A stretch of DNA of 56,829 nucleotides from Candidatus Pacearchaeota archaeon (GCA_017609745.1 JAFCDK010000001.1:1-56829); one strand, 5' to 3'; shown: positions 12,193-54,924, counted from the first letter of the stretch. Program-made: numbers and translations. Notes: a model not told the origin generated them from the letters alone.

Positions 12193-12963
12193 ATGCCCAA
12201 AAATAAAAAGTTTGCAGCAATTTATATTAGAGTTTCTACACAAGATCAAGTCCAGCATGGAATTTCTTTAAGAGCTCAGGAACAAGCTCTAAAAAACTAT
12301 GCAAAATCTCAAGGTTATGAAATTTTTAAAATTTATAAAGATGAAGGCAAATCAGCAAAAGCAATTAAAAATAGACCAGCAATGATGGAAATGCTTCAAG
12401 CCGCAGAACTTAGGAAATTTCAAGCAATTTTTATTTACAAATTAGATAGATTTTCAAGATCTTTAATGGATTTAATAACAACAATTGAAAAACTAAAAGA
12501 ATGGGGAATTGATTTTATTTCTTTACAAGATAAAATAGAAACAACTTCAGCTACTGGTAAGCTAATGTTTCATATTGTTTCAGCATTTGCAGAATTTGAA
12601 AGAAATGTTGTAGGCGAAAGAACAAAATTTACTATGAACTCAAAATTCCAAGATGGAGGAAATCCAGTTACAAGAGCCCCTTTAGGATATAAATTTGTAA
12701 ATAAACAATTAGCCCCCTCTGAAAATTCATACATAATACAAGAAATATATCAAACTTTTCTTAATACAGACACCAGCCTTACTCAATTAGCAAAAAAATA
12801 TAATCTTTCTGTGAATGGTCTTAAAAAAGTTCTAAAAAATCAAACTTATTTAGGAAAAGTAAAGTTTGCAGGAAAAATCCTTCAAGGCAAACATAATCCT
12901 TTAATCTCCAAAGACCTTTTTGATAAAGTACAGGAAAAACTAAATAAAATTATTAGAAGATGA
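12193..12963 (+). CDS. serine recombinase (resolvase/invertase catalytic domain plus short recombinase-type DNA-binding domain)
   Basis: 256 aa. N-terminal AAIYIRVSTQDQ...SLRAQEQ, YKLDRFSRS, ATGKLMFHIVSAFAEFERNVVGERTK. The C-terminal part (LGYKFVNKQL..IIQEIY..LTQLAKKYN..LKNQTYLGKVKF) resembles the recombinase domain of large serine recombinases but lacks the zinc-ribbon/coiled-coil extension. Confidence 0.8.
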   Translation: MPKNKKFAAIYIRVSTQDQVQHGISLRAQEQALKNYAKSQGYEIFKIYKDEGKSAKAIKNRPAMMEMLQAAELRKFQAIFIYKLDRFSRSLMDLITTIEKLKEWGIDFISLQDKIETTSATGKLMFHIVSAFAEFERNVVGERTKFTMNSKFQDGGNPVTRAPLGYKFVNKQLAPSENSYIIQEIYQTFLNTDTSLTQLAKKYNLSVNGLKKVLKNQTYLGKVKFAGKILQGKHNPLISKDLFDKVQEKLNKIIRR

Positions 12964-27069: not shown

Positions 27070-27083
27070 AATTATTAAAAGAA

Positions 27084-27196
27084 GAGACAGCTCTATGCCT
27101 TTCCCTCTTGTAGGAGAGTACCAACATAAACACAACCAGCTTAACTTCTGTGTTCGAAATGGGAACAGGTGTTTCCTGATTATTATGGCTGTCCTC
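27084..27196 (-). rRNA. rrf: 5S ribosomal RNA (stand-alone, short ~110 nt)
   Basis: Reverse strand: GGACAGCCAUAAUAAUCAGGAAACACCUGUUCCCAUUUCGAACACAGAAGUUAAGCUGGUUGUGUUUAUGUUGGUACUCUCCUACAAGAGGGAAAGGCAUAGAGCUGUC. It has the universal CCCAUUUCGAACACAGAAGUUAAGC loop-B/helix-III block and a terminal helix GGACAGC/GCUGUC. Confidence 0.85.
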
Positions 27197-27270
27197 AAAA
27201 TTACAGTATTTTAGAGGTTTTTAAGCTTTACTAAACTTTAAATATTAATAATAATTACCAGTTTTATCTT

Positions 27271-27354
27271 GCAAGGGTAGCGAAGTGGTCAAACGCGCGG
27301 GACTCAAGATCCCGTCTCTCAGTGAGTTCACAGGTTCGAATCCTGTCCCTTGCA
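27271..27354 (+). tRNA. tRNA-Leu (CAA)
   Basis: GCAAGGG..D-arm GCG/CGC..anticodon stem CGGGA/UCCCG, loop CUCAAGA, 15-nt variable arm, T-arm ACAGG-UUCGAAU-CCUGU, acceptor CCCUUGC-A. Confidence 0.9.
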
Positions 27355-27357
27355 CTT

Positions 27358-27636
27358 TCACATAAAACTCATAATAGATTTCTGTAAAAGAAAAAAACAC
27401 CCAAGCATTAAATAAATTGTAGGTACATTATATGCTAATGTTAATAAGATAATAATTCCAGTATAAATATCCAGAACACTTGCGATATCTCTTGTGATAG
27501 CAAATGCAATTCCTTTGATAAGTATAATTATCCCAAATATCCAAATTAAACTTTCTGGAGCAGAAAAATTCCAGATTAATAAAAAAAGCAATATTGCTGC
27601 TATAAAATCAATTATTCCAAGTAATTTTACTAACAT
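27358..27636 (-). CDS. small membrane protein (3 TM helices)
   Basis: 92-aa hydrophobic ORF between tRNA genes. No family recognised. Confidence 0.4.
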   Translation of the reverse strand: MLVKLLGIIDFIAAILLFLLIWNFSAPESLIWIFGIIILIKGIAFAITRDIASVLDIYTGIIILLTLAYNVPTIYLMLGCFFLLQKSIMSFM

Positions 27637-27677
27637 AAGTTTTTAAAAAGCAGGTGTTTTTTAAATATTGCCTTTAA

Positions 27678-27750
27678 GCTCCTGTAGCTCAATGGATAGA
27701 GCGATACCCCCCTAAGGTATAGGTTGCAGGTTCAACTCCTGTCAGGAGCA
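27678..27750 (+). tRNA. tRNA-Arg (CCU), anticodon loop CCCCUAA (C at position 33)
   Basis: 73-nt cloverleaf: GCUCCUG-UA-GCUC-AAUGGAUA-GAGC-G-AUACC-CCCCUAA-GGUAU-AGGUU-GCAGG-UUCAACU-CCUGU-CAGGAGC-A. Confidence 0.8.
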
Positions 27751-27789
27751 TCAAAACCTTTAAAACACTTGATTATCCATTATATTCAT

Positions 27790-27862
27790 GCGTGGGTAGT
27801 TCAGTGGTTTAGAATAACTGGCTTCCAACCAGTTGACCCGGGTTCAAATCCCGGCCCGCGCA
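27790..27862 (+). tRNA. tRNA-Gly (UCC)
   Basis: GCGUGGG-UA-GUUC..GAAU-A-ACUGG-CUUCCAA-CCAGU-UGAC-CCGGG-UUCAAAU-CCCGG-CCCGCGC-A. Confidence 0.9.
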
Positions 27863-27877
27863 TATTAATTAATAAAA

Positions 27878-34079: not shown

Positions 34080-35528
34080 ATGAAAAAATCAAAATCTAAA
34101 ATGCGGATTTTATTAATTCAACCTAATAGCACTAAAGAAGTAAATAAAGAATATGTTTCCCTCCAATATCCTATTAATTTGGGATACATCGCAGCAGTAT
34201 TAAAAAAAGAGGGCTACGAAGTTAAATTAGTAGATTTTAATGTAACTAGTTTGAAAAAACTTAATAATATAATCTTTAAATATAAACCAGAATTAATCGG
34301 AATAACTTCAATGACTTCGAGCATATATAACACTATGAATATCATTTCTAAAATTAAGAAAATTGATAAAAAAATAATAACTGTTTTAGGAGGAGTTCAT
34401 GCTTCTGCACTTCCAATAAAGACTATGGAAGAAATTAAAGATTTGGATTTTTTAGTTTTTGGAGAAGGGGAAAAAATAATTGTTGAATTAGTTAATGAAT
34501 TAAAAAACAAAAAATCTTCTTTTTCTAAAATAAAAGGGATAGTGTTTAGAAAAAAAGGGAGAATAATTAAGAATAAACCAAGAGAATTAATTGAAGATTT
34601 AAATACAATTCCTTATCCAGATAGAAATTTGTTACCTCTTAAATTATATGCTAAACAGCATGTATCAAGAGGATTTTCTCGACGGGAAATGAAAATTATT
34701 GAAATAATAACTAGTAGGGGGTGCCCCAATCATTGTATTTTTTGTGCAGGTCATATCAATTATGGCCATAGAGTTAGATTTAGGAGTTATGAAAATATTG
34801 TTGGGGAAATTACAGAGTGCATTAGAAAATATAATATAACACATGTTTCAATAGAAGATGATACTTTTATATTAAATAAAGAATTAGTAAGAAAATTATG
34901 TATTTTTTTTAAACAAAAAAAATTGACTTGGAATTGCAATGCAAGAGTAAATAATGTTAATTATGACTTATTAAAATTGATGGCAAAATCAGGATGTAAA
35001 AAAATAGCTTTTGGAGTTGAAAGTGGGAATTCAGAAATTTTGAAAAAAATTAAAAAAGGAATAACAGTAGAACAAGCAATTAAAGCAGTAAGAGATTCAA
35101 AGAAAGCAGGAATTCGGTATGTTGAATGTGATTTTATTCTTGGTTCTCATCCAGATGAAACACTAAAAACTATAAACGATTCTATAAATTTAATTTATAA
35201 ATTAATGCCAGATTTTTTAGCAATTTCTGTAATGTGCCCTTATCCTGGAACAGAAATTTATCAAATGATGATAAAAAATAAACTCCTTACTAAAAATCCT
35301 GATTGGTCACAATTCAGCCATTTTGGAGATCTTGAAAGATATGAAAAATTAAATTATCTAACTTCTGAACAAATAGTGAATCTACAAAATAAAATCATGA
35401 AAAAATATTATGGCTCTAAAAAATATATTTTTTCTCAATTAAAACAAATCAGTTCCTTAAACGAAATAAAATACTTTTTTAAAATGGCGTTTTTCTATTT
35501 AATGGAATTCGTTTTAAAGAAAAAATGA
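34080..35528 (+). CDS. cobalamin-binding (class B) radical SAM enzyme
   Basis: 482 aa. N-terminal B12-binding Rossmann (ILLIQPN..YPINLGYIAAVLKKEGYEVKLVD...GGVHASALP) and the radical SAM cluster motif RGCPNHCIFCAG. Confidence 0.8.
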   Translation: MKKSKSKMRILLIQPNSTKEVNKEYVSLQYPINLGYIAAVLKKEGYEVKLVDFNVTSLKKLNNIIFKYKPELIGITSMTSSIYNTMNIISKIKKIDKKIITVLGGVHASALPIKTMEEIKDLDFLVFGEGEKIIVELVNELKNKKSSFSKIKGIVFRKKGRIIKNKPRELIEDLNTIPYPDRNLLPLKLYAKQHVSRGFSRREMKIIEIITSRGCPNHCIFCAGHINYGHRVRFRSYENIVGEITECIRKYNITHVSIEDDTFILNKELVRKLCIFFKQKKLTWNCNARVNNVNYDLLKLMAKSGCKKIAFGVESGNSEILKKIKKGITVEQAIKAVRDSKKAGIRYVECDFILGSHPDETLKTINDSINLIYKLMPDFLAISVMCPYPGTEIYQMMIKNKLLTKNPDWSQFSHFGDLERYEKLNYLTSEQIVNLQNKIMKKYYGSKKYIFSQLKQISSLNEIKYFFKMAFFYLMEFVLKKK

Positions 35529-41546: not shown

Positions 41547-42665
41547 ATGAAGAGATTTTTTTATGCAAACTTTTTTAAACTTTTTAGATTATTTTTTTTA
41601 ATGCTTATAAATCTTAAAAAATTTTTTGATAAACTTTTTATTGAAAAAGATAAATTATACACTAGTGTTGGAAGATCCGCTTTACAAGCAATTATAGAGG
41701 AATTTAATCTCAAAAATTCCAAGATGATAATTCAATCTTTTATTTGTTCTAATGTTTTTTCTGCATCTTCTTTACAAAACAACATAAAATTAGTTTTAGT
41801 GGATAATCCAAAAAATAAATTAAACATAACCCTTTCTGATATCAAAAAAGCATATAAAAATGATAAAAAAATAAAATCTGTGTTAATAGTTCATACTTTT
41901 GGTTTAATTAATAAAGAAATAGATAAAATAAGTAACTGGTGTAAAAAGAATAATTTAATTCTTATAGAAGATGCTGTTTATTGTTTTAATATGAAATATA
42001 AAGGAAAGCAGATTGGAACTTTTGGAGATGCCGCAATTTTTAGTTTTCATAAATCTTTTAACTTTTTTATGTCAAGTGTGTATCTTAAAAATAATGGAAA
42101 AATTAATGTTTCTGCTAAACCATATAAAATAAATAAATTAGATTTATTACGATTTATAAAGCTAATTCCTTTCAGTCGATTAATTTTAAAAATTTTAAGA
42201 CCAATTAAAACAAAAGCAAAAATTAAAATTGATCCTACAAAAGTAAAAATAATCTCTGCGCCATGGTTTTTTAATTTTTTCTACACTTCTTCAAAAAAAT
42301 TAAATATAAGAAGAAGAAGAAACGTCGCGTTATCTATTTATAATATATTAAAAAAAGAAAATCCTAATATTTGTCCAAAATTAGAAATTTCATCTAACTT
42401 TTTCTTTTCAATCCCCCTTTTTGTAAAAAATAAAAATAAAATTTTTAATGAACTTATAAAAAAAGGAATAATTTGTAGCACAAGGTGGACAGTTCCTTTA
42501 TCTCGTAATAAACTAATATTGAAAAATCAAAAAATTAATAAAACCCCCAATGCAGAAGAACTTTCAAAAAAGATATTTCATATTTTCATATTTCCTACAT
42601 GGAACAAAAGAAAAATAGAAAGAACAGCAAAGATAATCTCCAAAGTCATCAAAAAATATAATTAA
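41547..42665 (+). CDS. DegT/DnrJ/EryC1-like (fold type I PLP) aminotransferase homolog, divergent
   Basis: 372 aa. VGRSALQAIIEEFNL..SKMIIQSFICSNVFSA...IKLVLVD and LIEDAVYCFNMKYKGKQIGTFGDAAIFSFHKSF match the DegT core including a candidate PLP lysine. The C-terminus is divergent. Confidence 0.45.
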   Translation: MKRFFYANFFKLFRLFFLMLINLKKFFDKLFIEKDKLYTSVGRSALQAIIEEFNLKNSKMIIQSFICSNVFSASSLQNNIKLVLVDNPKNKLNITLSDIKKAYKNDKKIKSVLIVHTFGLINKEIDKISNWCKKNNLILIEDAVYCFNMKYKGKQIGTFGDAAIFSFHKSFNFFMSSVYLKNNGKINVSAKPYKINKLDLLRFIKLIPFSRLILKILRPIKTKAKIKIDPTKVKIISAPWFFNFFYTSSKKLNIRRRRNVALSIYNILKKENPNICPKLEISSNFFFSIPLFVKNKNKIFNELIKKGIICSTRWTVPLSRNKLILKNQKINKTPNAEELSKKIFHIFIFPTWNKRKIERTAKIISKVIKKYN

Positions 42666-43471: not shown

Positions 43472-44917
43472 ATGATGGTAGTTGGTGATACTTTCTTTAG
43501 AGGAGGGGATATAGAAACTCCCAAAATTTCTAGTTCAGAAGATTTAAACAAATCATTTAATTTTAGATATAATAACACACAAAGAGTTTCTGACATTAGT
43601 AAAGAAGTAAAAAAACCAAAAATAGTCTATGTGGGTATGAGTGCTGATTTGATACATCCAGGCCATCTTAATATAATTAATAAAGCAAAAGAGTTTGGAG
43701 AAGTAATTATTGGATTATTAACTGATAAGGCTATTGCATCTTATAAAAGACTCCCTTTTATGTCTTATGAACAAAGAAAAATTGTAATGGAAAATATAAA
43801 AGGAGTAAAACAAGTTATTCCTCAAGAAACTCTTGATTATACCCCCAATTTAAAAAAAATCAAACCAAATTATGTTATTCATGGTGATGATTGGAAGATT
43901 GGAATCCAAAAAGAAATTAGACAAAGAGTTATAGAAACTTTGAAAGAATGGGGAGGAGAATTAGTAGAGGTGCCTTATACTCAAGGGATTTCATCAACAA
44001 AACTTAATAATGCATTAAACGAAATAGGGATTACTCCCGAAATTCGTATAAAAAGATTAAGAAGGCTTTTAGAATCAAAAGAAATTGTTAGAATATTAGA
44101 AGTACATAATGGATTAACCGCACTTATAGCCGAAAATATCAGTATAACAAAAGAAGGAAAGATAAAGGAGTTTGATGGAGTCTGGATAAGTAGTTTAACT
44201 GATTCAATATCAAAAGGAAAACCAGATATTGGTTTTGTTGATTTAACATCAAGATTAAATACAATAAACCAGGTATTAGAATCAACTACCAAACCAATTA
44301 TTTTAGATGGAGACAATGGAGGAGAATCAGAGCATTTTGAATATATGGTGAGAACAATAGAAAGATTAGGTGTTTCTGCAGTTATAATTGAGGACAAAAC
44401 AGGATTAAAAAAGAATTCTTTATTTGGAACAGAAGTTGAACAAATACAAGAAGAAGTGTCAAAATTTTCAGATAAAATTTCTAGAGGTAAAAAAGCACAA
44501 TTAACAGATGAGTTTATGATTATAGCAAGGATTGAAAGTTTAATTTTAAAAAAAGGACTTTATGAAGCGCTTATCAGAGCAAAAGCATATATTGAAGCAG
44601 GAGCTGATGCTATAATGATTCACAGTAAAGAAAAGGAGCCAACAGAAATTATTGAATTTTGTAAAGAATATTCTAAATTTGAAAATAAAGTGCCATTAGT
44701 AGTTGTTCCTACAACTTACAATTATATTATTGAAAAAGAATTTATAGAACTTGGTGTTAATATAGTTATATATGCAAATCATTTACTAAGAAGCGCATAT
44801 CCAGCTATGAAAAAAACAGCAGAATCAATTCTATTAAATGAAAGAGCCTATGAAGCTGAGGAATTTTGTTTACCAATAAAAGATTTATTAAATTTAATAC
44901 CCGAAAGAAAAGAATAA
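43472..44917 (+). CDS. bifunctional cytidylyltransferase / phosphoenolpyruvate mutase (Fom1-like architecture)
   Basis: 481 aa. The N-terminus has the HxGH cytidylyltransferase motif ([25 protein letters not shown] ... GISSTKL). The C-terminus is ICL/PEP-mutase superfamily ([51 protein letters not shown]). Confidence 0.8.
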
Positions 44918-44961
44918 ATTATATAAAAATTTAAATATTCTTTTCTCACATAAAATAGGAT

Positions 44962-46080
44962 ATGAAATGTGAAGAGTTATCAGAAATATTTAAAAAAAAT
45001 GATTTGACCTTTTTTACAGGAGTTCCTGATTCTATATTTAAAGATTGGATGAAATTTTTAGCAGATGGAAATGGTTTAACAAACATTATTGCATGTAATG
45101 AATGTGAAGCAACTGCAATTGCTTCTGGATATCATTTAGCTACAAATAAGGTGGGAATTGTGTATATGCAAAATTCTGGTCTTGGAAAATGTGTTAATCC
45201 TTTGACTTCCTTAATCTCAAAAGAAGCGTATGCTATACCCACTCTTTTGATGATTGGTTGGAGAGGAGAACCAGAAAAAAAAGACGAGCCACAACATAAA
45301 ATGATGGGGAGAATTATGTTGCCTTTGCTTGACACATTAGAAATTCCTTATCAAATCCTACCCAATGATATAAAACAAGCCGAACAAGTGATAAAAGAAA
45401 TGAAAGAACTAGCAGAACAAAAAAATTATGCTTCTGCAATTATAATCAAAAAAGACACTTTAGAAGAGTATGTTGCTCAAACTTTTGTTAAAACAAATTA
45501 TGAAATGTCAAGAGAAGATGCAATTAAGCTCATAGTGGACAATATGGATGGCGAAGAAGTAATTGTGTCTACTACAGGGAAAACGTCAAGAGAATTATTT
45601 GAATATCGGGTTGCAAGACAAGAAATACCAAGAGATTTTTATACAGTGGGGAGTATGGGGTGTTCAGCATCAATTGCAAACAGCATAGCTCTACAAAAAC
45701 CAGAAAAAAAGATTTTTATTTTTGATGGAGATGGTGCAGTTTTAATGCAAATGGGAGCATTATCAACAATTGGGCACTATAAAGCTAAAAATCTTTATCA
45801 TGTTATATTTGATAATACTTGTCATGATTCAACTGGGGGGCAACCAACTGTATCATCTACAGTTGATTTCAAACAAATAGCTTTGAGTTGTGGATATAGA
45901 AATGCTATAAAAATAGAAACAAAAGATGCTCTAATCAAAACAGTAAAAGAAACAAAGGAAAAACAAGGACCCAATTTATTTATTGTTAAAGTAAATAAGG
46001 GCGCAAGGCAAGATTTAGGAAGACCAACAACGACCCCCATTGAAAATAAAGAAGCTTTTATGCAATTCTTGCAAAAATGA
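44962..46080 (+). CDS. phosphonopyruvate decarboxylase (ThDP-dependent)
   Basis: 372 aa, the typical size. FFTGVPDS, GLGKCVNPLTSL, GSMGCSASIANSIAL, and FDGDGAVLMQMG..HVIFDN (ThDP/Mg motif). Directly downstream of the PEP mutase gene. Confidence 0.8.
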   Translation: MKCEELSEIFKKNDLTFFTGVPDSIFKDWMKFLADGNGLTNIIACNECEATAIASGYHLATNKVGIVYMQNSGLGKCVNPLTSLISKEAYAIPTLLMIGWRGEPEKKDEPQHKMMGRIMLPLLDTLEIPYQILPNDIKQAEQVIKEMKELAEQKNYASAIIIKKDTLEEYVAQTFVKTNYEMSREDAIKLIVDNMDGEEVIVSTTGKTSRELFEYRVARQEIPRDFYTVGSMGCSASIANSIALQKPEKKIFIFDGDGAVLMQMGALSTIGHYKAKNLYHVIFDNTCHDSTGGQPTVSSTVDFKQIALSCGYRNAIKIETKDALIKTVKETKEKQGPNLFIVKVNKGARQDLGRPTTTPIENKEAFMQFLQK

Positions 46081-46143
46081 GGCAACAAGAATTTTTTGGT
46101 TTTGAAAGTATAAAAAATTTCTAAATGTTGACTTCAAATTAAA

Positions 46144-47193
46144 TTAAGAATACTTATTTTTAAACAACTCATCATACTCATTACCTAAATGTTCTTTAAA
46201 AAATTCTCTTGCTTGTTTTAGCATTTGTCTGACTGGCAATTGATTATGGCAATTTTCTTCGCAAGTTCCACATTCTATGCAGGAATAAGGATCTGGCTTT
46301 CCTTTCATGGATTTTCTAAATCTTCCTAATGCTTGTTCTAGTAATCCAATTTTAATTGCATAATTGTATAGATAAAGAACATTTCCTATTGGAATCTTTT
46401 GCGGACAGGTTGGCTCGCAATAATGACATGATTGGCACATTCCTTCTAAACCTTTGATACTATTTCTTAATTCTTCTCTTTCTGATTCTATTAGTAGGGG
46501 GGCTTCTGCATTTTCAACATTTTCTCTAACTTGCTCTATAGTTATCATTCCTGGAATAACAGTTGAAACAGGATGTTCAAGCTCCCATTTTAATGCAAGG
46601 TTTGTTTTTTGAATATTTCCGCCATCTAAAGGTTTCATAGCTATATAACCAATTCCTTTTTCTTGAGCTTCATAAACTGCTTTAAACTCTCTTTTAATTG
46701 GATTAAAAGGAAATTGTAAAACCCCCCAATGCCCCAATTCTAAGGCCTTTAATGCAACATCTTCTCTGTGTGTGCTAATTCCTAAATGTTTTATCTTTCC
46801 TTCTTGTTTAGCTTGTTTTAAAAAATCCAAAGAACCATTTTCTATTAATTGCTTTAAAGTCTCAAGAGAATCAACACAATGATTTTGATAAACATCAATA
46901 TATTCTCTTTTCAAAGCAACTAAACTTGCTTCTAAATCCTTTCTTATTTTTTCAGGAGTTCTTTCTTTAGTTTTAGTCGCAATAATTGCCTCTCTTGGTA
47001 GGTATAAACCAAATTTTTTTTCACTATCACCATAAGAACTTGCATGAGAAGTATCAAAAAAATTAATTCCTTGGTTAATAGCCGCCTTTAATACTTTTTC
47101 AGCTTGTTCATTTGAAACTCCTTGTAAAGGAATGCCGCCAAAACCAATAACAGAAACTTTTAGACCTGTTTTACCCAATTCTCTAAATTTCAT
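46144..47193 (-). CDS. aldo/keto reductase with C-terminal 2x[4Fe-4S]-type cysteine motifs
   Basis: MKFRELGKTGLKVSVIGFGG (the Met at 47193 gives the canonical AKR N-terminus), FFDTSHASSYGDSE, HLGISTH. C-terminal CQSCHYCEPTCP and CIECGTCEENC. Confidence 0.75.
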   Translation of the reverse strand: MKFRELGKTGLKVSVIGFGGIPLQGVSNEQAEKVLKAAINQGINFFDTSHASSYGDSEKKFGLYLPREAIIATKTKERTPEKIRKDLEASLVALKREYIDVYQNHCVDSLETLKQLIENGSLDFLKQAKQEGKIKHLGISTHREDVALKALELGHWGVLQFPFNPIKREFKAVYEAQEKGIGYIAMKPLDGGNIQKTNLALKWELEHPVSTVIPGMITIEQVRENVENAEAPLLIESEREELRNSIKGLEGMCQSCHYCEPTCPQKIPIGNVLYLYNYAIKIGLLEQALGRFRKSMKGKPDPYSCIECGTCEENCHNQLPVRQMLKQAREFFKEHLGNEYDELFKNKYS

Positions 47194-47414
47194 ACGAATA
47201 AAGATTTTAAACATTTAAAAAGATTATTGAGATTTACCTTACACCCATAGTTACATAATTATTTAAATATAAAATTTCCATTACTAGCATGAAAAAAGTA
47301 GTTGTATTTGAAATTAGTGAATAAGAGCTTGAGATTATTCTTGAAAAGATATTTAATCCAACAAGAATGAAAAATAATTCGAGATTATTAACAGAAGAAA
47401 ACTTAAAAAATCTA

Positions 47415-48182
47415 TTAATCAGAATATATCAAAAAGGTTTCATGTTTCTTTTTCACCCAATCGCCAAGTTCGTACCAATTAAATCCTTCAAAATGTTTAG
47501 TTGGTTTTTTCCAATCACCATATTTTTTTTCTAAGTATTTTTTAGAAGATGAAGGAACTTTTAATTTAAGACCATAAAAATTAATAGTTTTTAAATTAAG
47601 AAAATAGTTGGCTGGAACATCTAAATAATGAATAGTCATTTTATAGAAAGGGGATACAAAAATTTTAACAATTTTATAGATTAATGGTTTGAATTTTTTA
47701 GGTAAATATTTTAATAAATAGAATAAATTGATTTTAATTAAATACCTTAGCCCATTTGATTTATCAAATTTGATTTTCCCATAATAGGATACACTAAGTA
47801 ATCTGCCTATTTTTATAATGATCTTTCCTGTAAAATTTCCTCCAACCGGTTTTTCTAATAATATTTTCTTATGGTCTTTTGGATTGTATCTCATTAATTG
47901 AACATTAATTTTTATTAAATTTTTATCAATATTCATTACATCCCATAAAAAATAAACTGAAAATCCTTTTTTTTCTAACTCGTTTGTTAATTTCTTTTTT
48001 ATAAATTTGCTATCTACATATTCTGCAAGAATTCCTAAATCAATATCATCATCCCAAGGGATAATTTTTTTGTCTCTAATTGCTCCTAACAAAGTTCCAA
48101 ATTCTAACCAGAAAGGGATTTTATTATTATCAAAAACTTCTTTTACTTCCTCTAAATATTCTAATGCAAGCCTTTCGTCCAT
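47415..48182 (-). CDS. LicD-family phospho-headgroup transferase
   Basis: 255 aa. FWLEFGTLLGAIRDKKIIPWDDDIDLGI is the LicD nucleotidyltransferase-fold motif. YL.KKYGDW near the C-terminus. Confidence 0.75.
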   Translation of the reverse strand: MDERLALEYLEEVKEVFDNNKIPFWLEFGTLLGAIRDKKIIPWDDDIDLGILAEYVDSKFIKKKLTNELEKKGFSVYFLWDVMNIDKNLIKINVQLMRYNPKDHKKILLEKPVGGNFTGKIIIKIGRLLSVSYYGKIKFDKSNGLRYLIKINLFYLLKYLPKKFKPLIYKIVKIFVSPFYKMTIHYLDVPANYFLNLKTINFYGLKLKVPSSSKKYLEKKYGDWKKPTKHFEGFNWYELGDWVKKKHETFLIYSD

Positions 48183-48474: not shown

Positions 48475-51468
48475 ATGAAAAAAGTGGTATGGAAAAATAA
48501 GACTAATGAACAACTATGTATTACAATTCCAAAGAATTCTGGAATTAAAGATGGAGATATTGTAGAATTAAAAAAATCAACTATAAAAAAGATAGCTTAT
48601 ATTGGAATAGTTGGAGATCTTTTTCATTATGGTCATCTTCAGTCAATAAAATTTGCTAAATCTATAGCAGATTATCTAATATGTGGAGTATTAACTGATA
48701 ATGCAGTGGAAAAATATAGAACAAAACCAATTGCAAACCTTCAAGAAAGAAAAGCAGTTATATCAAGTTTGAGTTATGTTGATAGAGTAATAACTCAACA
48801 TAGTAGAGACCATACTGAAAACTTAAAAAAAATACATGAGGAATTTCCAGATGCAAAATTAATTCTTGTTCATGGAGCTGATTTAAATGAAATTCCAGGT
48901 TCAGAATATATTAGAAAAATAGGTGGAGAAACTATAAAACACCCTTATTATGCGAGACTCTCAACAGTAAAAATAGTTAATCAAATAGTTGAAAATCAAA
49001 ATAAATTTAAAGATATACTTAATTTTTCATCTTTAATTAAAGGAGAATATAAAATTGATTCTGAATATAAAAAAGGAAATAAAATACTTGTCTCTACTAA
49101 AGCAGATACATTGAAGACATTAAAAGATTTACTTAAGAAATCTAAAATTGAAAAATTATTTGTATTTAGTACTTCTGATTGGAAAAATAACAAAGATAGA
49201 ATATTAAAAAACATAAAAGAAAAATTCTCTCCAGAAAAAATCATAATTAGAAGTTCTACATTAAAGGAAGACACTCTAAATACTTCAATGGCTGGATGTT
49301 TTAAAAGCATACTCAATATAAACCCAGATGATATAAAACAAACAGAAATAGCAATAAAAAAGGTAATAGACTCTTATACTAATAAAAAATCAGAGAGTTC
49401 TTTTAACCAAATTCTTATACAATCATATACACAAGATGTTGTAATGAGTGGGGTTATTTTTACAAGGATGATAGATACAAATGCTCCTTATTATCTTATA
49501 AATTATGATGATTCTACTGGAAAGACAGATACTGTTACAAAAGGAATTGAATATAAAACAATAAAAATTTCAAGATTTGTTGGTTTAGATAAAGTGCCAT
49601 ATAAATTCAGAAATCTTTTGGATTCTGTAAAGGAAATTGAATCAATTATTCCAGATATAAATTTAGATATAGAATTTGCTATTAACAAAAAAAAAGAAAT
49701 AATTATTTTTCAAGTTAGACCTTTAATAAAAAATTCATTAATTGATATAAATGATAATTTGATTAAAAATAAAATAGAGACTTTAATTAATAAATTTCAG
49801 GAATTATCAAAACCTAAAAATTCTCTTGCTGGGGAAAAAAATATTTTTGCCGATATGCCAGATTGGAATCCAGCCGAGATACTTGGCCACGCTCCAAACC
49901 ATCTAGATTATTCTCTTTATAATTATATTATAACAGAAGAGGTTTGGCATGAAGCAAGAACTTCTCAGGGGTATTATAATGTGGCTCCTGCAAAATTAGT
50001 TGTCTTATTTGGAAACAAACCATATATAGATGTAAGAAATAGTTTTAATTCATTTATACCAAATACGCTCTCTCCAAATTTAAGAAGTAAATTAATCCAA
50101 TTCTATTTAAATAAACTTAAAAAAAATCCAGAATTACAAGATAAAGTTGAGTTTGAAATTTTATATACTTGTTATGATTTGAGTTTTAATGAAAGATCAA
50201 ACGAGTTGGTGGCTGCTGGTTTTTCAAAAGACGAAATCATCGAATTAAAAAATGCTTTAATAAATTTAACAAATAATCTAATAACTAATTCAAAAAAGTC
50301 TATTCAAGAAGATTTAAAATCTCTTAGAGAAATGGAGAGAAATGAAGAAAAAATAAAAGAAACTCTGAAATTACCATATACCCATTCTATAAATAATTTG
50401 TTAGATAATGCAAAGTTTCTACTTGATGATTGTAAAAAAAAGGGGACAGTTCAATTTTCAAGATTAGCAAGATTAGCTTTTATAGGAAAAATATTTTTGA
50501 AAAGCCTTATTGTCAAAAAAGTAATCGACGAGGAATTTTATAACAAATTTATGAATTCAATAAACACAATAGCCACTGAATTAAAACAAGATTTTAAATT
50601 ATTAAAGATAAACAAAATAACAAAACAAGATTTCATAAAAAAATATGCTCATCTAAGACCAGGCACTTATAATATTGTAAGTTTAAGATATGATTCAAAT
50701 TCAGAATTTCTCAAAGTATTTGATTTTGAACTATCTGATTCTAAACCTGTTAATTTCATATTAAATACAAAAACTGAAGAAAAGATAACTAAAATTTTGA
50801 TGGAAGAAGGATTAGAATTTAATGCATCAGAATTACTAGAATTTGTAAAAACATCAATTAAAGCCAGAGAACTTGCTAAATTCAAATTTACAAAAAATTT
50901 AAGTGATGCAATTGAGTTAATAGCTTTGGCAGGAAGGGAAATGGGATTTACCAGACAAGAATTAGCAAAGTTAGATATTAAAGACTTGTTTTTAAAAAGA
51001 GAAGAGAGTAGGGAAGAATTAACAAAAAGTTGGAAAAAAATTATCTTTTCTAAAATGGATGAAGAAAATATAGATAAATTTTTGGAACTACCTCCATTAA
51101 TCTTTTCTGAGGAGGATTTTCATATTATAAAATATTATTCACCCCAACCAAATTATATAACTCAAAAAAAGATAAAATCTAAACTAGTGAAATTAGATAC
51201 AAATAGCTCAGCCAAATCTGTTGATATTGATGCTAAAATTGTGATGATTGAGAATGCAGATCCAGGGTATGATTGGATATTTACAAGAAATCCTGCCGGC
51301 TTAATAACAAAATATGGTGGCGTTGCTTCTCATATGTCTATAAGATGTGCAGAGTTTGATATTCCTGCTGCAATCGGTTGTGGCATTATATTTGATAATC
51401 TAATTAATTTTAAAGAAATTATTTTAGATTGTGGAATTAAAAAAATAACTCCTTATTTAGGAGAATAA
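48475..51468 (+). CDS. tri-domain enzyme: HxGH cytidylyltransferase + PPDK_N-type ATP-grasp + PEP-utiliser phosphohistidine swivel domain (Cj1418 glutamine-kinase-like core)
   Basis: 997 aa. GIVGDLFHYGHLQSIKFAK...RLSTVKI (TagD-like). IIRSSTLKEDTLNTSMAGCFKSILNI...VMSGVIFTR...IIIFQVRPL (PPDK_N). IENADPGYDWIF..AGLITKYGGVASHMSIRCAEFDIPAAIGCG (swivel His). Confidence 0.7.
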   Translation: MKKVVWKNKTNEQLCITIPKNSGIKDGDIVELKKSTIKKIAYIGIVGDLFHYGHLQSIKFAKSIADYLICGVLTDNAVEKYRTKPIANLQERKAVISSLSYVDRVITQHSRDHTENLKKIHEEFPDAKLILVHGADLNEIPGSEYIRKIGGETIKHPYYARLSTVKIVNQIVENQNKFKDILNFSSLIKGEYKIDSEYKKGNKILVSTKADTLKTLKDLLKKSKIEKLFVFSTSDWKNNKDRILKNIKEKFSPEKIIIRSSTLKEDTLNTSMAGCFKSILNINPDDIKQTEIAIKKVIDSYTNKKSESSFNQILIQSYTQDVVMSGVIFTRMIDTNAPYYLINYDDSTGKTDTVTKGIEYKTIKISRFVGLDKVPYKFRNLLDSVKEIESIIPDINLDIEFAINKKKEIIIFQVRPLIKNSLIDINDNLIKNKIETLINKFQELSKPKNSLAGEKNIFADMPDWNPAEILGHAPNHLDYSLYNYIITEEVWHEARTSQGYYNVAPAKLVVLFGNKPYIDVRNSFNSFIPNTLSPNLRSKLIQFYLNKLKKNPELQDKVEFEILYTCYDLSFNERSNELVAAGFSKDEIIELKNALINLTNNLITNSKKSIQEDLKSLREMERNEEKIKETLKLPYTHSINNLLDNAKFLLDDCKKKGTVQFSRLARLAFIGKIFLKSLIVKKVIDEEFYNKFMNSINTIATELKQDFKLLKINKITKQDFIKKYAHLRPGTYNIVSLRYDSNSEFLKVFDFELSDSKPVNFILNTKTEEKITKILMEEGLEFNASELLEFVKTSIKARELAKFKFTKNLSDAIELIALAGREMGFTRQELAKLDIKDLFLKREESREELTKSWKKIIFSKMDEENIDKFLELPPLIFSEEDFHIIKYYSPQPNYITQKKIKSKLVKLDTNSSAKSVDIDAKIVMIENADPGYDWIFTRNPAGLITKYGGVASHMSIRCAEFDIPAAIGCGIIFDNLINFKEIILDCGIKKITPYLGE

Positions 51469-51469
51469 A

Positions 51470-52972
51470 ATGTGGATTGTAATCTCTCAAAGAAATGATT
51501 TGAATCAATATGGAGATAGAATGGATACTCTCGAAAACAATTATATAAATTATTTTGAAAAATTTGGAATAAAACTCATTCCAATTTCTAATTCAACAAA
51601 AAATATTAATTCTTACTTTGAAAAATTTCCAATTTCAGGTATTATCTTATCTGGAGGAAATGATATAAACCCTGAATTATATAACAAAAAAATTAACGAA
51701 TCTGAAAAGAAAAAATTATTTATCTCTAATGAAAGAGATGAAACAGAAAAAGAACTTTTGAGAATTGCCATAAAAAAGAAAATTCCTGTATTAGGAATTT
51801 GTAGAGGAATGCAATTTATTAATGTTTTTTTTAAAGGTAAATTGATTAATATTAAAGAAGAGAATCAGTCCGAGATAGGGCATCTTGCTACAGAGCACAC
51901 CATCAAAATAATTAATAATAAAGCCAAAAAATTATTAAATAATGAATCAAGAATAAATTCTTACCATGGGTATGGAATAAATAAAAAAACATTATCTTCA
52001 GAATTAGAAATTTTTGCACAAACCGATGATGCATTGATAGAGGGATTATACCATCCTTTATTCCCGATAGTTGGAATTCAATGGCATCCAGAGAGAAAAA
52101 GTCCTGATGAAAGAATAAATAACAAACTAATAGAAGCCTTTTTGAAAAAAGAATTATTTTGGAAAATAAAAAATAAAAAAATGAAAACTATAATTCTTGC
52201 AGCGGGTATGGGAACAAGATTGGGTAAATATAACTCTAATTTGCCCAAATGTTTATTAGAATTTAATAAGAAAACATTGATAGAAAGGCAAATTGAAACA
52301 CTAAGAGCTTGTGGACTAAATGATATAATTGTTGTAAAAGGTTATATGTCTAAAAAACTTCAAATGCCTAATGTTAAATTCTATTTTAATAAAGATTTTG
52401 CAAACACAAATATGGTTGAAACTTTATTTTGTGCTGAAAAAGAAATGGATGATGAACTCTTGGTTTGTTATTCAGATATTCTTTATGATAAAGAAATAAT
52501 AAACAAAATTACATCTAGTCATGTCGATATAGGGGTAGTGGTAGATAAAGATTATTGGGATTATTGGAATGCAAGAATGGATGAACCTGAAAAAGATATG
52601 GAAAGTCTTGTGATTGATGAACAGGGCAAAATAATTGAAATGGGAGATACAACTTGCTCTAGAGATAAAGCTAAGGTAAGATATGTTGGGTTAATTAAAT
52701 TTTCAAAAAAAGGCGTTCAGGCCTTAAAAAAAGTTTATCAGGAGAATAAAGAAAAATACTTTGATAAAGACGAACAATGGTTAAAATCTAAATCATTTAA
52801 AAAAGCTTATATGACCTCTATGTTACAAGCATTGATTAATGAGGGTTATAGAGTAGATCCAATAATAATTTCAAGAGGATGGATGGAATTTGACACAGAA
52901 GAAGATTATGAAAAAGCAAATCTATGGTTAAAAGATGGTTCTATAAAAAGATTTATTAATATTGAAAAATGA
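51470..52972 (+). CDS. bifunctional peptidase-C26/class-I-glutamine-amidotransferase-like hydrolase + LicC/NTP_transf_3-type nucleotidyltransferase (Cj1417-like + Cj1416-like)
   Basis: 500 aa. N-terminus: GIILSGGNDINP, RDETE, PVLGICRGMQFINV, VGIQWHPE. C-terminal half starts MKTIILAAGMGTRLG..LPKCLL, followed by VCYSDILYD. It starts 1 nt after the upstream stop. Confidence 0.7.
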   Translation: MWIVISQRNDLNQYGDRMDTLENNYINYFEKFGIKLIPISNSTKNINSYFEKFPISGIILSGGNDINPELYNKKINESEKKKLFISNERDETEKELLRIAIKKKIPVLGICRGMQFINVFFKGKLINIKEENQSEIGHLATEHTIKIINNKAKKLLNNESRINSYHGYGINKKTLSSELEIFAQTDDALIEGLYHPLFPIVGIQWHPERKSPDERINNKLIEAFLKKELFWKIKNKKMKTIILAAGMGTRLGKYNSNLPKCLLEFNKKTLIERQIETLRACGLNDIIVVKGYMSKKLQMPNVKFYFNKDFANTNMVETLFCAEKEMDDELLVCYSDILYDKEIINKITSSHVDIGVVVDKDYWDYWNARMDEPEKDMESLVIDEQGKIIEMGDTTCSRDKAKVRYVGLIKFSKKGVQALKKVYQENKEKYFDKDEQWLKSKSFKKAYMTSMLQALINEGYRVDPIIISRGWMEFDTEEDYEKANLWLKDGSIKRFINIEK

Positions 52973-54249
52973 GCATTTTAGAATTATTTTTAACAATAAC
53001 TGCAGGAATCTTAATCTTAGAATTATTATCCCAAGCAACAGTAAATTTTTGTAGAAATAAATTTCAGTGGTTAATTACTCAAAAAAAAGACGAAACCCCC
53101 AAAATTGACAAAAAGAAAATTAAAAAAAAATATTTTGAAAAGGGTTTTGATTCCGAATTAGGATGGGTTAGAAAACCAAATACCACTGGTTATGACAAAC
53201 GATTTTTTCAATTTAATGATAATAAATGGGGCTATAAAAAAAGTAAATGGACAATAAACAGATTTGGAGCAAGATTAAATCCAGGTCATGAAAAATTAAA
53301 AAAATCTATGATTTCTTGTTATGGAGATTCTTTTACATTTTCAAGACAGGTTAATGATAATGAAACTTGGGAATATCAGTTATCTAAAAAAACAGGGTTT
53401 AATGTACTTAATTTTGGAGTAGGTAATTATGGACTTGATCAAGCACTGTTAAGGCTACAAAGAGAATTTCCAAAAAATCCTACAAAAATTGTGATTATGG
53501 CAGTTGTTCCAGATACAATAAGCAGGATTCTAAGTTGTTGGAAACATTTTTATGAATATGGAAATATTTGGGCATTTAAACCAAGATTTAAGTTAAATAA
53601 TTTTGGGAATCTTCAGATTATACCAAATATAATTGATAAGCCAGAAAAATTTTTCAAATTAAAACAATATATGGATAGATTAAGAAAACAGGATTTTTTT
53701 TATAAAAAGAAATTTAAAAAAGAGATTATTCAGTTTCCTTATCTTTTCTTTTTAATGAAAAATCCAATAAGAAACTTAAAAATTATATTTGGTGTTATTA
53801 AACATACATTTTTATCTAATTTTTTTAAAAAATATAAAATTATGGAACCTTCTGATTGGCATATAACAAAATTTATTAGAAAAACCAATTTGAGATGGAC
53901 AGTTAAATTGTATAAAGATCCACAAGCAGTCAAATTGATAGAAAAATTAATTGATAAGTTTTTAAAAGAGAGTAAAAAATTTAATTTTAAACCAATCTTT
54001 ATTTTTCTTCCCCAAAAAAATGAAGTTTTATATTATAAAAATAAAGGAAAATTTTATATGCCCTTTTTTAAGAAAATAAGCAGAAAAATTGAAACAATTG
54101 ATATTACCACACCACTCCTTCACCATCCAAATTTAAATTCTCTTTATTCTGAACCCACAATTTATGGAGCACACTATAGCAAAAAAGGAAATGCCTTTGT
54201 TGGTAATATAATTTATCAAAAACTTAAAGAAAAGGGATACTTAAATTAA
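52969..54249 (+). CDS. membrane-anchored SGNH/GDSL-like hydrolase or O-acyltransferase accessory protein
   Basis: 426 aa. N-terminal TM helix. Block I CYGDSFTF, then NFGVGNYGLDQALLRL. ATGA-type overlap with the upstream gene. The family call is tentative. Confidence 0.35.
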   Translation: MSILELFLTITAGILILELLSQATVNFCRNKFQWLITQKKDETPKIDKKKIKKKYFEKGFDSELGWVRKPNTTGYDKRFFQFNDNKWGYKKSKWTINRFGARLNPGHEKLKKSMISCYGDSFTFSRQVNDNETWEYQLSKKTGFNVLNFGVGNYGLDQALLRLQREFPKNPTKIVIMAVVPDTISRILSCWKHFYEYGNIWAFKPRFKLNNFGNLQIIPNIIDKPEKFFKLKQYMDRLRKQDFFYKKKFKKEIIQFPYLFFLMKNPIRNLKIIFGVIKHTFLSNFFKKYKIMEPSDWHITKFIRKTNLRWTVKLYKDPQAVKLIEKLIDKFLKESKKFNFKPIFIFLPQKNEVLYYKNKGKFYMPFFKKISRKIETIDITTPLLHHPNLNSLYSEPTIYGAHYSKKGNAFVGNIIYQKLKEKGYLN

Positions 54250-54267
54250 ATCTAAATTAATTAAACA

Positions 54268-54924
54268 TTAATATTTCCGATAAATCCAATACTTTGATAA
54301 GTAATAAATATGGCACAATATTCCAAAGAATAACAATACCCAAAGATTAGAAAAAATAACCGCTATACTTACTAATATTCTATGCATTCCAGAATCAAAT
54401 AATATACTCCAATGTTTCTTTTTAAAAAATTTATCCTCAAATTCCAAATTTATCTTTTTTTTATTTGGAAACTCTAATTCTCCTGTAATAGATGTTATAA
54501 TTACCATAAGCAAACCATACATCGCAAAGAATCCAATCCATGCAGAACCCATAAAACATCCGGCAAAAAATATTAATAAAGGAAAACTTATTGCCCCAAC
54601 TGTTTCATCTAAGTACCCCCCATAATTTTTTTTTCTTAGATTTTTCTGTTTCTTTCTATTAAAACGCGCAACTTCTCCATCAGATAAATCTAATATTATT
54701 GCTAAATTAACTAATAATCCAGCAATTATCCAAAGTTTGAGATACATCAAATAAATAACTAAAAAATCTGCAAAAAAACTCAAAAGCGTGATAAAATTGG
54801 GATGGAATTTTAATTTAACAAAAAGAGTGCTAATAAGAGCAGATATTTTTCTATAAAAATAAAAAGCAAAATATCCTTGATCAGGTGTTTTTTGCAACCC
54901 CTTTATTTGTGAATATATTGACAT
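54268..54924 (-). CDS. divergent CDP-alcohol phosphatidyltransferase-family membrane protein
   Basis: 218 aa and polytopic. DLSDGEVAR ... GGYLDETVG corresponds to DGxxAR..GxxxDxxxD, but with a longer basic spacer and Gly in place of the last Asp. Confidence 0.45.
   Translation of the reverse strand: MSIYSQIKGLQKTPDQGYFAFYFYRKISALISTLFVKLKFHPNFITLLSFFADFLVIYLMYLKLWIIAGLLVNLAIILDLSDGEVARFNRKKQKNLRKKNYGGYLDETVGAISFPLLIFFAGCFMGSAWIGFFAMYGLLMVIITSITGELEFPNKKKINLEFEDKFFKKKHWSILFDSGMHRILVSIAVIFSNLWVLLFFGILCHIYYLSKYWIYRKY

Follow-up and report, generated by a model that had tools for sequence, protein, structure and literature searches.

A candidate aldo-keto reductase in the iron alcohol dehydrogenase slot of a predicted phosphonate cassette from a DPANN-like archaeon

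Introduction

In the inventory of phosphonate gene neighbourhoods by Li & Horsman 2022, those of the 2-hydroxyethylphosphonate (HEP) type account for 8.5%, and about 13% carry none of the seven known branch enzymes (PMC8942020). Two unrelated proteins, PhpC, which is an iron alcohol dehydrogenase (Fe-ADH), and PbfG, which is a Zn-dependent medium-chain dehydrogenase/reductase (MDR; PF00107), both interconvert HEP and phosphonoacetaldehyde (PnAA) (PMC13576164, 2026). Here we describe a locus in a 56,829-nucleotide stretch of DNA from Candidatus Pacearchaeota archaeon (GCA_017609745.1 JAFCDK010000001.1:1-56829; the whole stretch that was analysed is called the window) in which a gene for an aldo-keto reductase (AKR) with a putative iron-sulfur domain lies between the two remaining ends of an Fe-ADH gene. 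To our knowledge, PhpC-type Fe-ADHs and PbfG-type MDRs are the only enzyme classes known to interconvert PnAA and HEP. We propose, with a probability of roughly 0.5, that the locus is a HEP-type phosphonyl tailoring cassette of a low-GC, DPANN-like archaeon in which the AKR displaced the Fe-ADH in situ and now reduces PnAA. An earlier note on this DNA, made by a reader of the sequence alone, had pointed to four open reading frames (ORFs) at the locus, and all four are present with the identities that it gave them, as judged by ORF reading and by Pfam and NCBIfam profiles.

The phosphonate genes

The first of these genes (43472..44917, plus strand) encodes 481 residues in which a cytidylyltransferase (CyTase; PF01467, HxGH) is fused to a phosphoenolpyruvate (PEP) mutase (PepM, also Ppm), an assignment made from Pfam, TIGR02320 and motifs. 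PF01467 covers residues 57-178 (57 bits) and PF13714 residues 196-454 (190 bits), and the PEP mutase model TIGR02320 reaches 398.1 bits against a cut-off of 319.55, with the fusion scoring far under the cut-offs of the models for phosphonopyruvate hydrolase, methylisocitrate lyase and carboxyPEP mutase. Its translation contains the cytidylyltransferase motifs HPGH and GISST together with the Ppm-specific motif EDKxxxxxNS, which is the criterion that separates Ppm from isocitrate-lyase relatives (PMC6697681), and over the N-terminal domain 88 of 136 residues (65%) agree with the crystallised, HEP-specific CyTase domain of Fom1 (PDB 5x3d). The Fom1-like fusion of the earlier note is thereby borne out, and the isocitrate-lyase or carboxyPEP mutase type of C-terminal domain that the note had listed as a way to be wrong is not what the profiles return. 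Its presentation of the fusion as a notable architecture was overstated, since nucleotidyltransferase fusions account for about 60% of Ppm proteins and those with PF01467 for 23.6% of the Ppm proteins in RefSeq (PMC6697681, Rice et al. 2019); the CyTase-PepM fusion is common, not special. At its N-terminus the ORF is about 47 residues (43472-43615) longer than its homologues of about 432 aa, and an internal ATG is absent near the usual start, which leaves the true start codon uncertain.

The next gene (44962..46080, plus strand) encodes a phosphonopyruvate decarboxylase (Ppd), an enzyme dependent on thiamine diphosphate (ThDP) that contains both ThDP domains (TPP_enzyme_N, PF02776; TPP_enzyme_C, PF02775) and scores 456.9 bits with TIGR03297 (cut-off 312.5). 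The two models for sulfopyruvate decarboxylase give 135 and 83 bits, under their cut-offs, and the acetolactate model also stays far below its own, so that the protein is the decarboxylase that had been named and not one of these two look-alikes. Its predicted product is PnAA.

Convergent to these two genes, and beyond the AKR gene, lies a LicD-family phosphotransferase gene (47415..48182, minus strand). The protein has a DDDID motif and a PF04991 score of 56.1 bits (gathering 22.6) whose best stretch is confined to residues 19-52, and it reaches 67 bits with the NCBIfam equivalog Mf1, under the cut-off of 225. A LicD cluster is found beside the cassette in 12 of the 48 related genome loci, in keeping with the LicD partner proposed earlier, and locus L025 (Fe-ADH forward, LicD reverse) has LicD in the same convergent position as the window. 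The genes for PepM, Ppd and LicD are all full-length and highly conserved.

Related loci and the consensus cassette

A scan with the fusion protein against one genome per species and against JGI metagenome contigs returned 128 loci, at 119 of which the fusion is at least 55% identical; some loci of the two collections are the same contig. The hosts include Woesearchaeota, Nanoarchaeota, Lokiarchaeum, candidate phyla radiation (CPR) bacteria, Syntrophomonadaceae, Clostridium, spirochaetes and others, and the fusion of the window is 62-76% identical to its counterparts in related loci; Ppd is 73% identical to that of L010. Neighbouring ORFs of the related loci were clustered and the cluster representatives annotated, with 86 loci offering sufficient sequence to judge. 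The consensus cassette that emerges reads CyTase-PepM, then Ppd, then an Fe-ADH (PF00465) of the PhpC/FomC type, and frequent extras are LicC/PntC-like NTP transferases, LicD or TagF-like transferases and B12-radical-SAM genes. An Fe-ADH gene stands beside that for Ppd at 75 of the 86 informative loci, starting no more than 150 nt after Ppd at 53 of them, and a 2-aminoethylphosphonate (AEP) transaminase (AEPT) takes this place at six, some of which are Clostridium loci; five have neither enzyme there, and none has an AKR. Because Fe-ADH is found at 75 of these loci and AEPT at six, the gene content argues for a cassette family that is predominantly of the HEP type, that is, the Fom1/Fom2/FomC trio in a glycan context.

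The earlier note had also held that phosphonate decoration with this reductase would be unusual in a DPANN-type archaeon. Phosphonate cassettes are frequent in metagenome-assembled genomes of Woesearchaeota and Nanoarchaeota, and what is unusual is therefore the reductase only, not the decoration.

Relics of an Fe-ADH gene on either side of the AKR gene

Immediately after ppd the window retains the 5' end of a PhpC/FomC-type Fe-ADH gene (46077..46124, plus strand), which consists of 15 codons (46077-46121) and a stop and whose ATG overlaps the ppd stop codon (ATGA). The peptide that it encodes is MRQQEFFGFESIKNF, and the Fe-ADH N-termini of relatives read MRQQEYSGFNSIRKL (L007), MQEEFFGFGTIDKL (L008) and MKQREYFGFNSIINL (L010). 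With a position-specific scoring matrix (PSSM) built from the relatives' N-termini only, this relic scores 31.0 bits and ranks first among 46,486 stop-free 15-mers in six frames, the runner-up reaching 15.2 bits. The 3' end of the gene survives as well (47325..47429, plus strand; about 33 codons, 47325-47426), overlapping the 3' end of the LicD gene; it reads LEIILEKIFNPTRMKNNSRLLTEENLKNLLIRIY and fits the C-terminal motif of the family, FNPxRVKNNPRxLTxExLxxxL. When the 3,120 six-frame fragments of the window were all compared with an Fe-ADH hidden Markov model (HMM) made from 31 relatives, the 3' relic was returned at E = 1.7e-5, the next fragment at E = 1.1, and its alignment to HMM positions 345-377 falls at the end of the protein. 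Likewise, tblastn with eight different Fe-ADH relatives matched it across the last 22-26 residues of the queries, with 52-68% identity.

The two relics have the order, strand and position expected for the old gene, and between them, on the opposite strand, the AKR gene fills the Fe-ADH slot after ppd. Since the AKR gene is bordered on each side by what is left of an end of the Fe-ADH gene, the interior of the latter was replaced, and in all probability it was codons 16 to 344, approximately, that gave way to an AKR-bearing segment of 1.2 kb, a swap of about 1.2 kb in for about 1.0 kb of gene interior out. Taken together with the Fe-ADH in the consensus cassette, the relics imply that the locus descends from a HEP pathway, which sides with the earlier note in its choice of the HEP over the AEP branch.

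A second contig, from JGI sample 3300033148, is 99.94% identical to the window (13 single-nucleotide polymorphisms (SNPs) in 20.7 kb) and extends 7 kb further. It has the identical arrangement of the AKR gene between relics, and because the same structure occurs in an independent contig, mis-assembly is ruled out. None of the SNPs lies in the genes for AKR or Ppd, and the sole one in the PepM/Ppd/LicD block of these two strain variants is synonymous. At the borders of the replacement, a search for repeats or scars of mobile elements returned short, chance-level repeats only; scans for sigma-70 promoters and terminators at the locus were uninformative, the host being archaeal.

The AKR-FeS protein

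The AKR gene (46144..47214, minus strand; probable start at M8, 47193) encodes an aldo-keto reductase (PF00248, 110.9 bits, gathering 24) followed by a C-terminal domain in which two CxxCxxCxxxC motifs (C260/263/266/270 and C312/315/318/322) supply the two ferredoxin-like cysteine clusters that the earlier reading had seen. Fer4_7 (29.4 bits, gathering 27) and Fer4_17 (27.5 bits, gathering 22.2) are above threshold and other Fer4 models below, consistent with a putative 2x[4Fe-4S] dicluster domain of the ferredoxin type; we refer to the protein as AKR-FeS. In an alignment of 14 family members the catalytic tetrad D54/Y61/K81/H112 and all eight cysteines are invariant, as are the cofactor-loop motifs N171, MKPxxGG (193-199), IPG (220-222) and N232. 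Structurally, the AlphaFold model (pLDDT 84.9, pTM 0.83) finds its best Foldseek matches in the PDB among L-galactose dehydrogenase, AKR14A1/YghZ, perakine reductase and AKR11C1, at TM-scores of about 0.70. YghZ reduces L-glyceraldehyde 3-phosphate, a small anionic phosphorylated aldehyde, and PnAA is therefore a chemically reasonable substrate for the AKR.

The GC content at third codon positions (GC3) of the AKR gene is 0.165 and that of neighbouring host genes 0.13-0.21; a foreign composition can thus be dismissed, and there is no signal of a recent transfer from a compositionally different donor. Among 5.8 billion proteins, 2,032 matched the AKR at E <= 1e-10, the best non-self match being 46% identical, and the named homologues among the best 120 come almost all from anaerobic Firmicutes. 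A literature search on AKR-4Fe4S fusions turned up no characterised member. The two closest homologues of the AKR-FeS protein (P0002 and P0009, from L001:5474-10771 and L005) have the same DTSxxxxYGDSE insertion as the window protein. In these bacterial loci a conserved gene string runs from a PPDK-like protein (TIGR01828, 768 bits, below cut-off) through AKR-FeS and two EamA half-transporters to an APH-type kinase, and in L001 two radical-SAM/SPASM genes precede it.

Proposed pathway and competing explanations

Functionally, the PEP mutase domain is predicted to turn PEP into phosphonopyruvate, and decarboxylation to PnAA by Ppd would pull this reaction forward. In the ancestor, PnAA would have been reduced to HEP by a PhpC/FomC-type Fe-ADH whose gene immediately followed ppd; in the present lineage, AKR-FeS would carry out the same reduction with its Asp-Tyr-Lys-His tetrad and a nicotinamide cofactor, an instance of non-orthologous gene displacement in situ, and its Fe-S domain could be an electron relay, a regulatory element or a structural one. 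The Fom1-like CyTase domain would then join HEP and CTP to give CMP-HEP, from which the LicD-type transferase may move the phosphonate head group to a glycan or lipid acceptor. A preference of the CyTase domain for HEP would fit, indirectly, with its greatest similarity being to fusions from HEP-type loci with an Fe-ADH. We assign the reduction to the AKR because an aldehyde reductase of another fold occupies the place of the old reductase and the remaining pathway genes are intact.

Several findings count against this assignment. The AKR is a singleton, found at none of the 119 closer loci nor elsewhere among all 128, and a single replacement event, which has no replication in other lineages, yields no co-occurrence statistic. 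No PepM is encoded in five neighbourhoods of three of the closest AKR homologues (about 46% identity), which hold a PPDK-like protein with EamA and a kinase, a molybdopterin oxidoreductase, or surface proteins; association of this AKR family with PepM elsewhere was accordingly rejected, there being no phosphonate genes by the homologues. No feature specific to phosphonate binding was found in the AKR sequence, and a distal Fe-ADH or another reductase in the unseen rest of the genome could do the work on PnAA. Moreover, the Fe-ADH relics are still recognisable and the event may be recent, in which case the intact pepM and ppd genes are weak evidence of continued selection. The earlier proposal that the AKR replaces the Fe-ADH takes strong circumstantial backing from its slot and the flanking relics, which a reader of the sequence alone could not have seen, and is less secure at the level of function, where the singleton status and the homologues' PepM-free surroundings bear on it.

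The explanation that survives best beside displacement with takeover of function draws on the same findings: the AKR gene would have landed in the Fe-ADH gene by chance and serve an unrelated purpose (aldehyde detoxification or some other redox step), with PnAA reduced by an unlinked enzyme or the pathway broken or decaying. Uniqueness among the 119 loci and homologues in settings unrelated to phosphonates are what it would lead one to expect, the AKR gene runs convergent to the operon and forms no part of it, and an event young enough to leave readable relics may have been too recent for visible decay. On the other side stand the intact genes for PepM, Ppd and LicD, with their one synonymous SNP, and the host-like codon usage of the AKR gene, which speaks against the gene having come very recently from a donor of different composition; a near size-for-size exchange that puts a member of an aldehyde-reducing family where an aldehyde reductase had been would also be a striking coincidence. 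We regard a chance landing as unlikely, if a serious contender.

A bolder form of the takeover by the AKR, to which we lend little credence, is that AKR-FeS constitutes a third independent class of PnAA reductase whose dicluster draws electrons from ferredoxin instead of, or besides, NAD(P)H. If this were true, PnAA would be the first substrate for the AKR-4Fe4S family and the enzyme would bring a new redox mode to the AKR superfamily.

It seems improbable, too, that the AKR serves the surrounding glycan machinery or the phosphoramidate-type module next door, where it might reduce a keto-sugar, for example, or some other intermediate with a carbonyl group. The gene does lie inside a 25-kb glycan cluster, two genes from a CyTase-glutamine-kinase-like module, and the structural neighbours of its product include sugar dehydrogenases such as L-galactose dehydrogenase. 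Yet the conserved phosphoramidate-type operon of other DPANN contigs (L137-L139) has no AKR, which is why we rejected a partnership with that module, none of the related glycan loci examined has one either, and the exact placement inside an Fe-ADH gene would be left unexplained.

As for the AEP branch, Pfam was run on all ORFs encoding 120 aa or more in the part of the window beyond 27.8 kb and on nine upstream ORFs, and the Fe-ADHs and six AEPTs of related loci were run with tblastn against the whole window and the 7 kb of extra contig. A class-V aminotransferase (PhnW/AEPT; Aminotran_5, PF00266) is absent from the scanned ORFs, about 64 kb being covered, and the AEPT queries matched only an NTP-transferase domain in the window and its 7-kb extension; the earlier statement that no PhnW-type transaminase lies nearby therefore holds for about 64 kb. 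An intact Fe-ADH (PF00465) is likewise missing across about 64 kb, where the tblastn matches are the relics only. Two genes upstream of the fusion, a DegT/DnrJ/EryC1-like ORF (41547-42665) has Phe at the canonical column of the pyridoxal phosphate (PLP)-binding lysine, Lys two residues before it, NNGK in place of GEGG and a divergent N-terminus, and may be a degenerate or neofunctionalised member of its family; lacking both the canonical Lys column and GEGG, it was judged an unlikely cryptic AEP transaminase. That 2-AEP is made after all, through this protein or some other non-canonical or unlinked aminotransferase, we consider very improbable: AEP is the commonest outcome of PepM plus Ppd (56% of neighbourhoods, PMC8942020), such an ORF is at hand and a few related fusions, those of Clostridium loci, are paired with AEPT, but the relics at the locus are of Fe-ADH and not AEPT, DegT homologues are present also in Fe-ADH-bearing relatives, and the CyTase domain of the window is nearer to the fusions of Fe-ADH loci (67-75% identity) than to those of AEPT loci (54-63%).

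We thus favour displacement of the Fe-ADH by an AKR that now reduces PnAA, and an in situ replacement with surviving relics is unusually direct genomic evidence for such functional equivalence. The analysis puts forward the AKR as a possible third class of PnAA reductase, a specific proposal that is cheap to test. If the proposal is true, HEP-type clusters would gain a third marker, a widespread and uncharacterised AKR + 4Fe-4S family of anaerobes would gain its first function, and DPANN surface-decoration pathways would be seen to be remodelled by gene-level swaps; if it is refuted, the locus is a damaged copy of a common cassette.

Host and genomic setting

The window is archaeal, encoding both subunits of DNA polymerase D (PolD) as well as Cdc6/Orc1, and has a GC content of 23-33%. 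The part from about 31 kb onwards is a single long surface-glycan cluster (about 25 kb) with GT2, GT4 and GT9 glycosyltransferases, a Wzx-type flippase, an asparagine-synthase-like amidotransferase, methyltransferases, B12-radical-SAM enzymes and a polysaccharide deacetylase. A 5S rRNA gene (27082-27196, minus strand) followed by plus-strand genes for tRNA-Leu(CAA), tRNA-Arg(CCT) and tRNA-Gly(TCC), all within 27082-27863, marks the point where a block of short ORFs on the minus strand (15-26 kb) gives way to the SecDF/glycan region. Further upstream, between 8000 and 14000 and near the Cdc6/PolD replication genes, a serine recombinase with Resolvase and Recombinase domains (12193-12963, plus strand) is accompanied by helix-turn-helix (HTH) proteins, and the AT skew flips sign relative to the flanks; this stretch could be an integrated element beside the replication genes.

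The B12-radical-SAM gene at 34080-35528 was considered as a Fom3/PhpK-like methylase and discarded, given that it scores best with HpnJ and BchE and reaches 136 bits with the Sden_1168 P-methyltransferase model; a second copy, past the window end, has no NCBIfam match. A different type of B12-radical-SAM gene lies immediately upstream of the CyTase-PepM fusion in three related DPANN loci (L010:1229-2641, L012:8578-9984 and L013:8635-10035). The products are closest to NF038361 (Sden_1168 family P-methyltransferase), at 335-366 bits and under its cut-off of 575, which suggests that these archaea may carry methylated phosphonate or phosphinate head groups.

A neighbouring module of putative phosphoramidate type

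Beyond the LicD gene, the region 48475-54924 is, by its gene content, best described as a module that adjoins the phosphonate cassette and is separate from it. Its first gene (48475-51468, plus strand) encodes 997 aa in which a CyTase (PF01467) precedes a glutamine-kinase-like body of PPDK_N and PEP-utilizer type; it is followed by a class-I glutamine amidotransferase fused to NTP_transf_3 (51470-52972, plus strand), a 426-aa protein to which no function was assigned (52969-54249, plus strand) and a CDP-alcohol phosphatidyltransferase-like membrane protein (54268-54924, minus strand). The kinase body scores 854 bits with NF004508 (cut-off 501), a model labelled 'hypothetical protein', and a literature search for PRK05849 found nothing. 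More than 100 DPANN homologues (49-63% identical) have the same CyTase-kinase fusion, several of them labelled 'glutamine kinase' by JGI and a few with an extra APS-kinase domain. The amidotransferase is best matched by the model for gamma-glutamyl-CDP-amidate hydrolase, at 100 bits and under the equivalog cut-off of 250. In the operon of L137-L139, which also lacks PepM, the order is kinase fusion, class-I amidotransferase, NTP_transf_3 and CDP-alcohol phosphatidyltransferase-like protein.

Relatives have the amidotransferase and the NTP transferase as two overlapping genes, and the single ORF of the window is therefore a derived fusion. In the twin contig (99.9% identical), A>T at 51491 places a stop at codon 8 of this ORF, so the real start must lie further downstream (the JGI call is 483 aa). 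A stand-alone CyTase of about 180 aa ('CyT2') is encoded just before the CyTase-PepM gene in eight related DPANN loci (L007, L012, L013, L025, L031, L034, L039 and L053), and 51-56% of its residues match the N-terminal domain of the 997-aa kinase fusion.

By its kinase body, amidotransferase and NTP transferase the module resembles the O-methyl phosphoramidate pathway of Campylobacter jejuni (Cj1418 glutamine kinase, Cj1416, Cj1417 and Cj1415). It differs from that pathway in that the domains are fused in another way, with a PF01467 CyTase on the kinase, in that the window has no APS-kinase domain (PF01583) of the Cj1415 type, and in that the archaeal operon conserves a CDP-alcohol phosphatidyltransferase-like gene. 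A similar phosphoramidate suggestion has been made for archaeal elements in the Borg preprint (10.1101/2024.11.05.622173).

Comparison with known systems

Among the closest described systems is the Fom1/Fom2/FomC trio of fosfomycin biosynthesis in Streptomyces, with which the window shares the fusion architecture and, as predicted, the same first three chemical steps up to PnAA, and whose FomC/PhpC-type Fe-ADH the ancestral locus also had, according to the relics. The window departs from the fosfomycin cluster in that AKR-FeS stands in place of FomC, in that no Fom3-like methyltransferase is demonstrably linked (the B12-radical-SAM genes being generic), in that no equivalents of Fom4 or FomD were seen in the window, and in that its context is not an antibiotic cluster but glycan assembly, with LicD, a flippase and glycosyltransferases.

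In this last respect the locus is closer to the HEP branch of the phosphonyl tailoring (Pnt) pathways for cell-surface phosphonates (PMC6697681; PMC8942020), in which a glycan locus likewise encodes a Ppm-nucleotidyltransferase fusion together with Ppd, a reductase and a transferase resembling LicD. Where that branch has a PhpC-like Fe-ADH (PF00465), the reductase slot of the window holds PF00248 plus Fer4. Because mining schemes sort phosphonate clusters by such marker enzymes, the locus would rank as 'unclassified' in the scheme of Li & Horsman, whose inventory includes 12 archaeal neighbourhoods only; the window is archaeal and DPANN-like.

Among aldo-keto reductases, AKR14A1/YghZ and the AKR11-14 families have the fold, the tetrad and the cofactor-loop motifs of the window protein, which is 23-29% identical to them and adds a C-terminal domain of about 100 residues with eight cysteines. 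With regard to the reaction, PhpC and PbfG offer a precedent for convergence of unrelated oxidoreductase families on the interconversion of PnAA and HEP; the window protein, a TIM-barrel AKR with a putative dicluster ferredoxin domain, belongs to neither family and is predicted to catalyse the same reaction.

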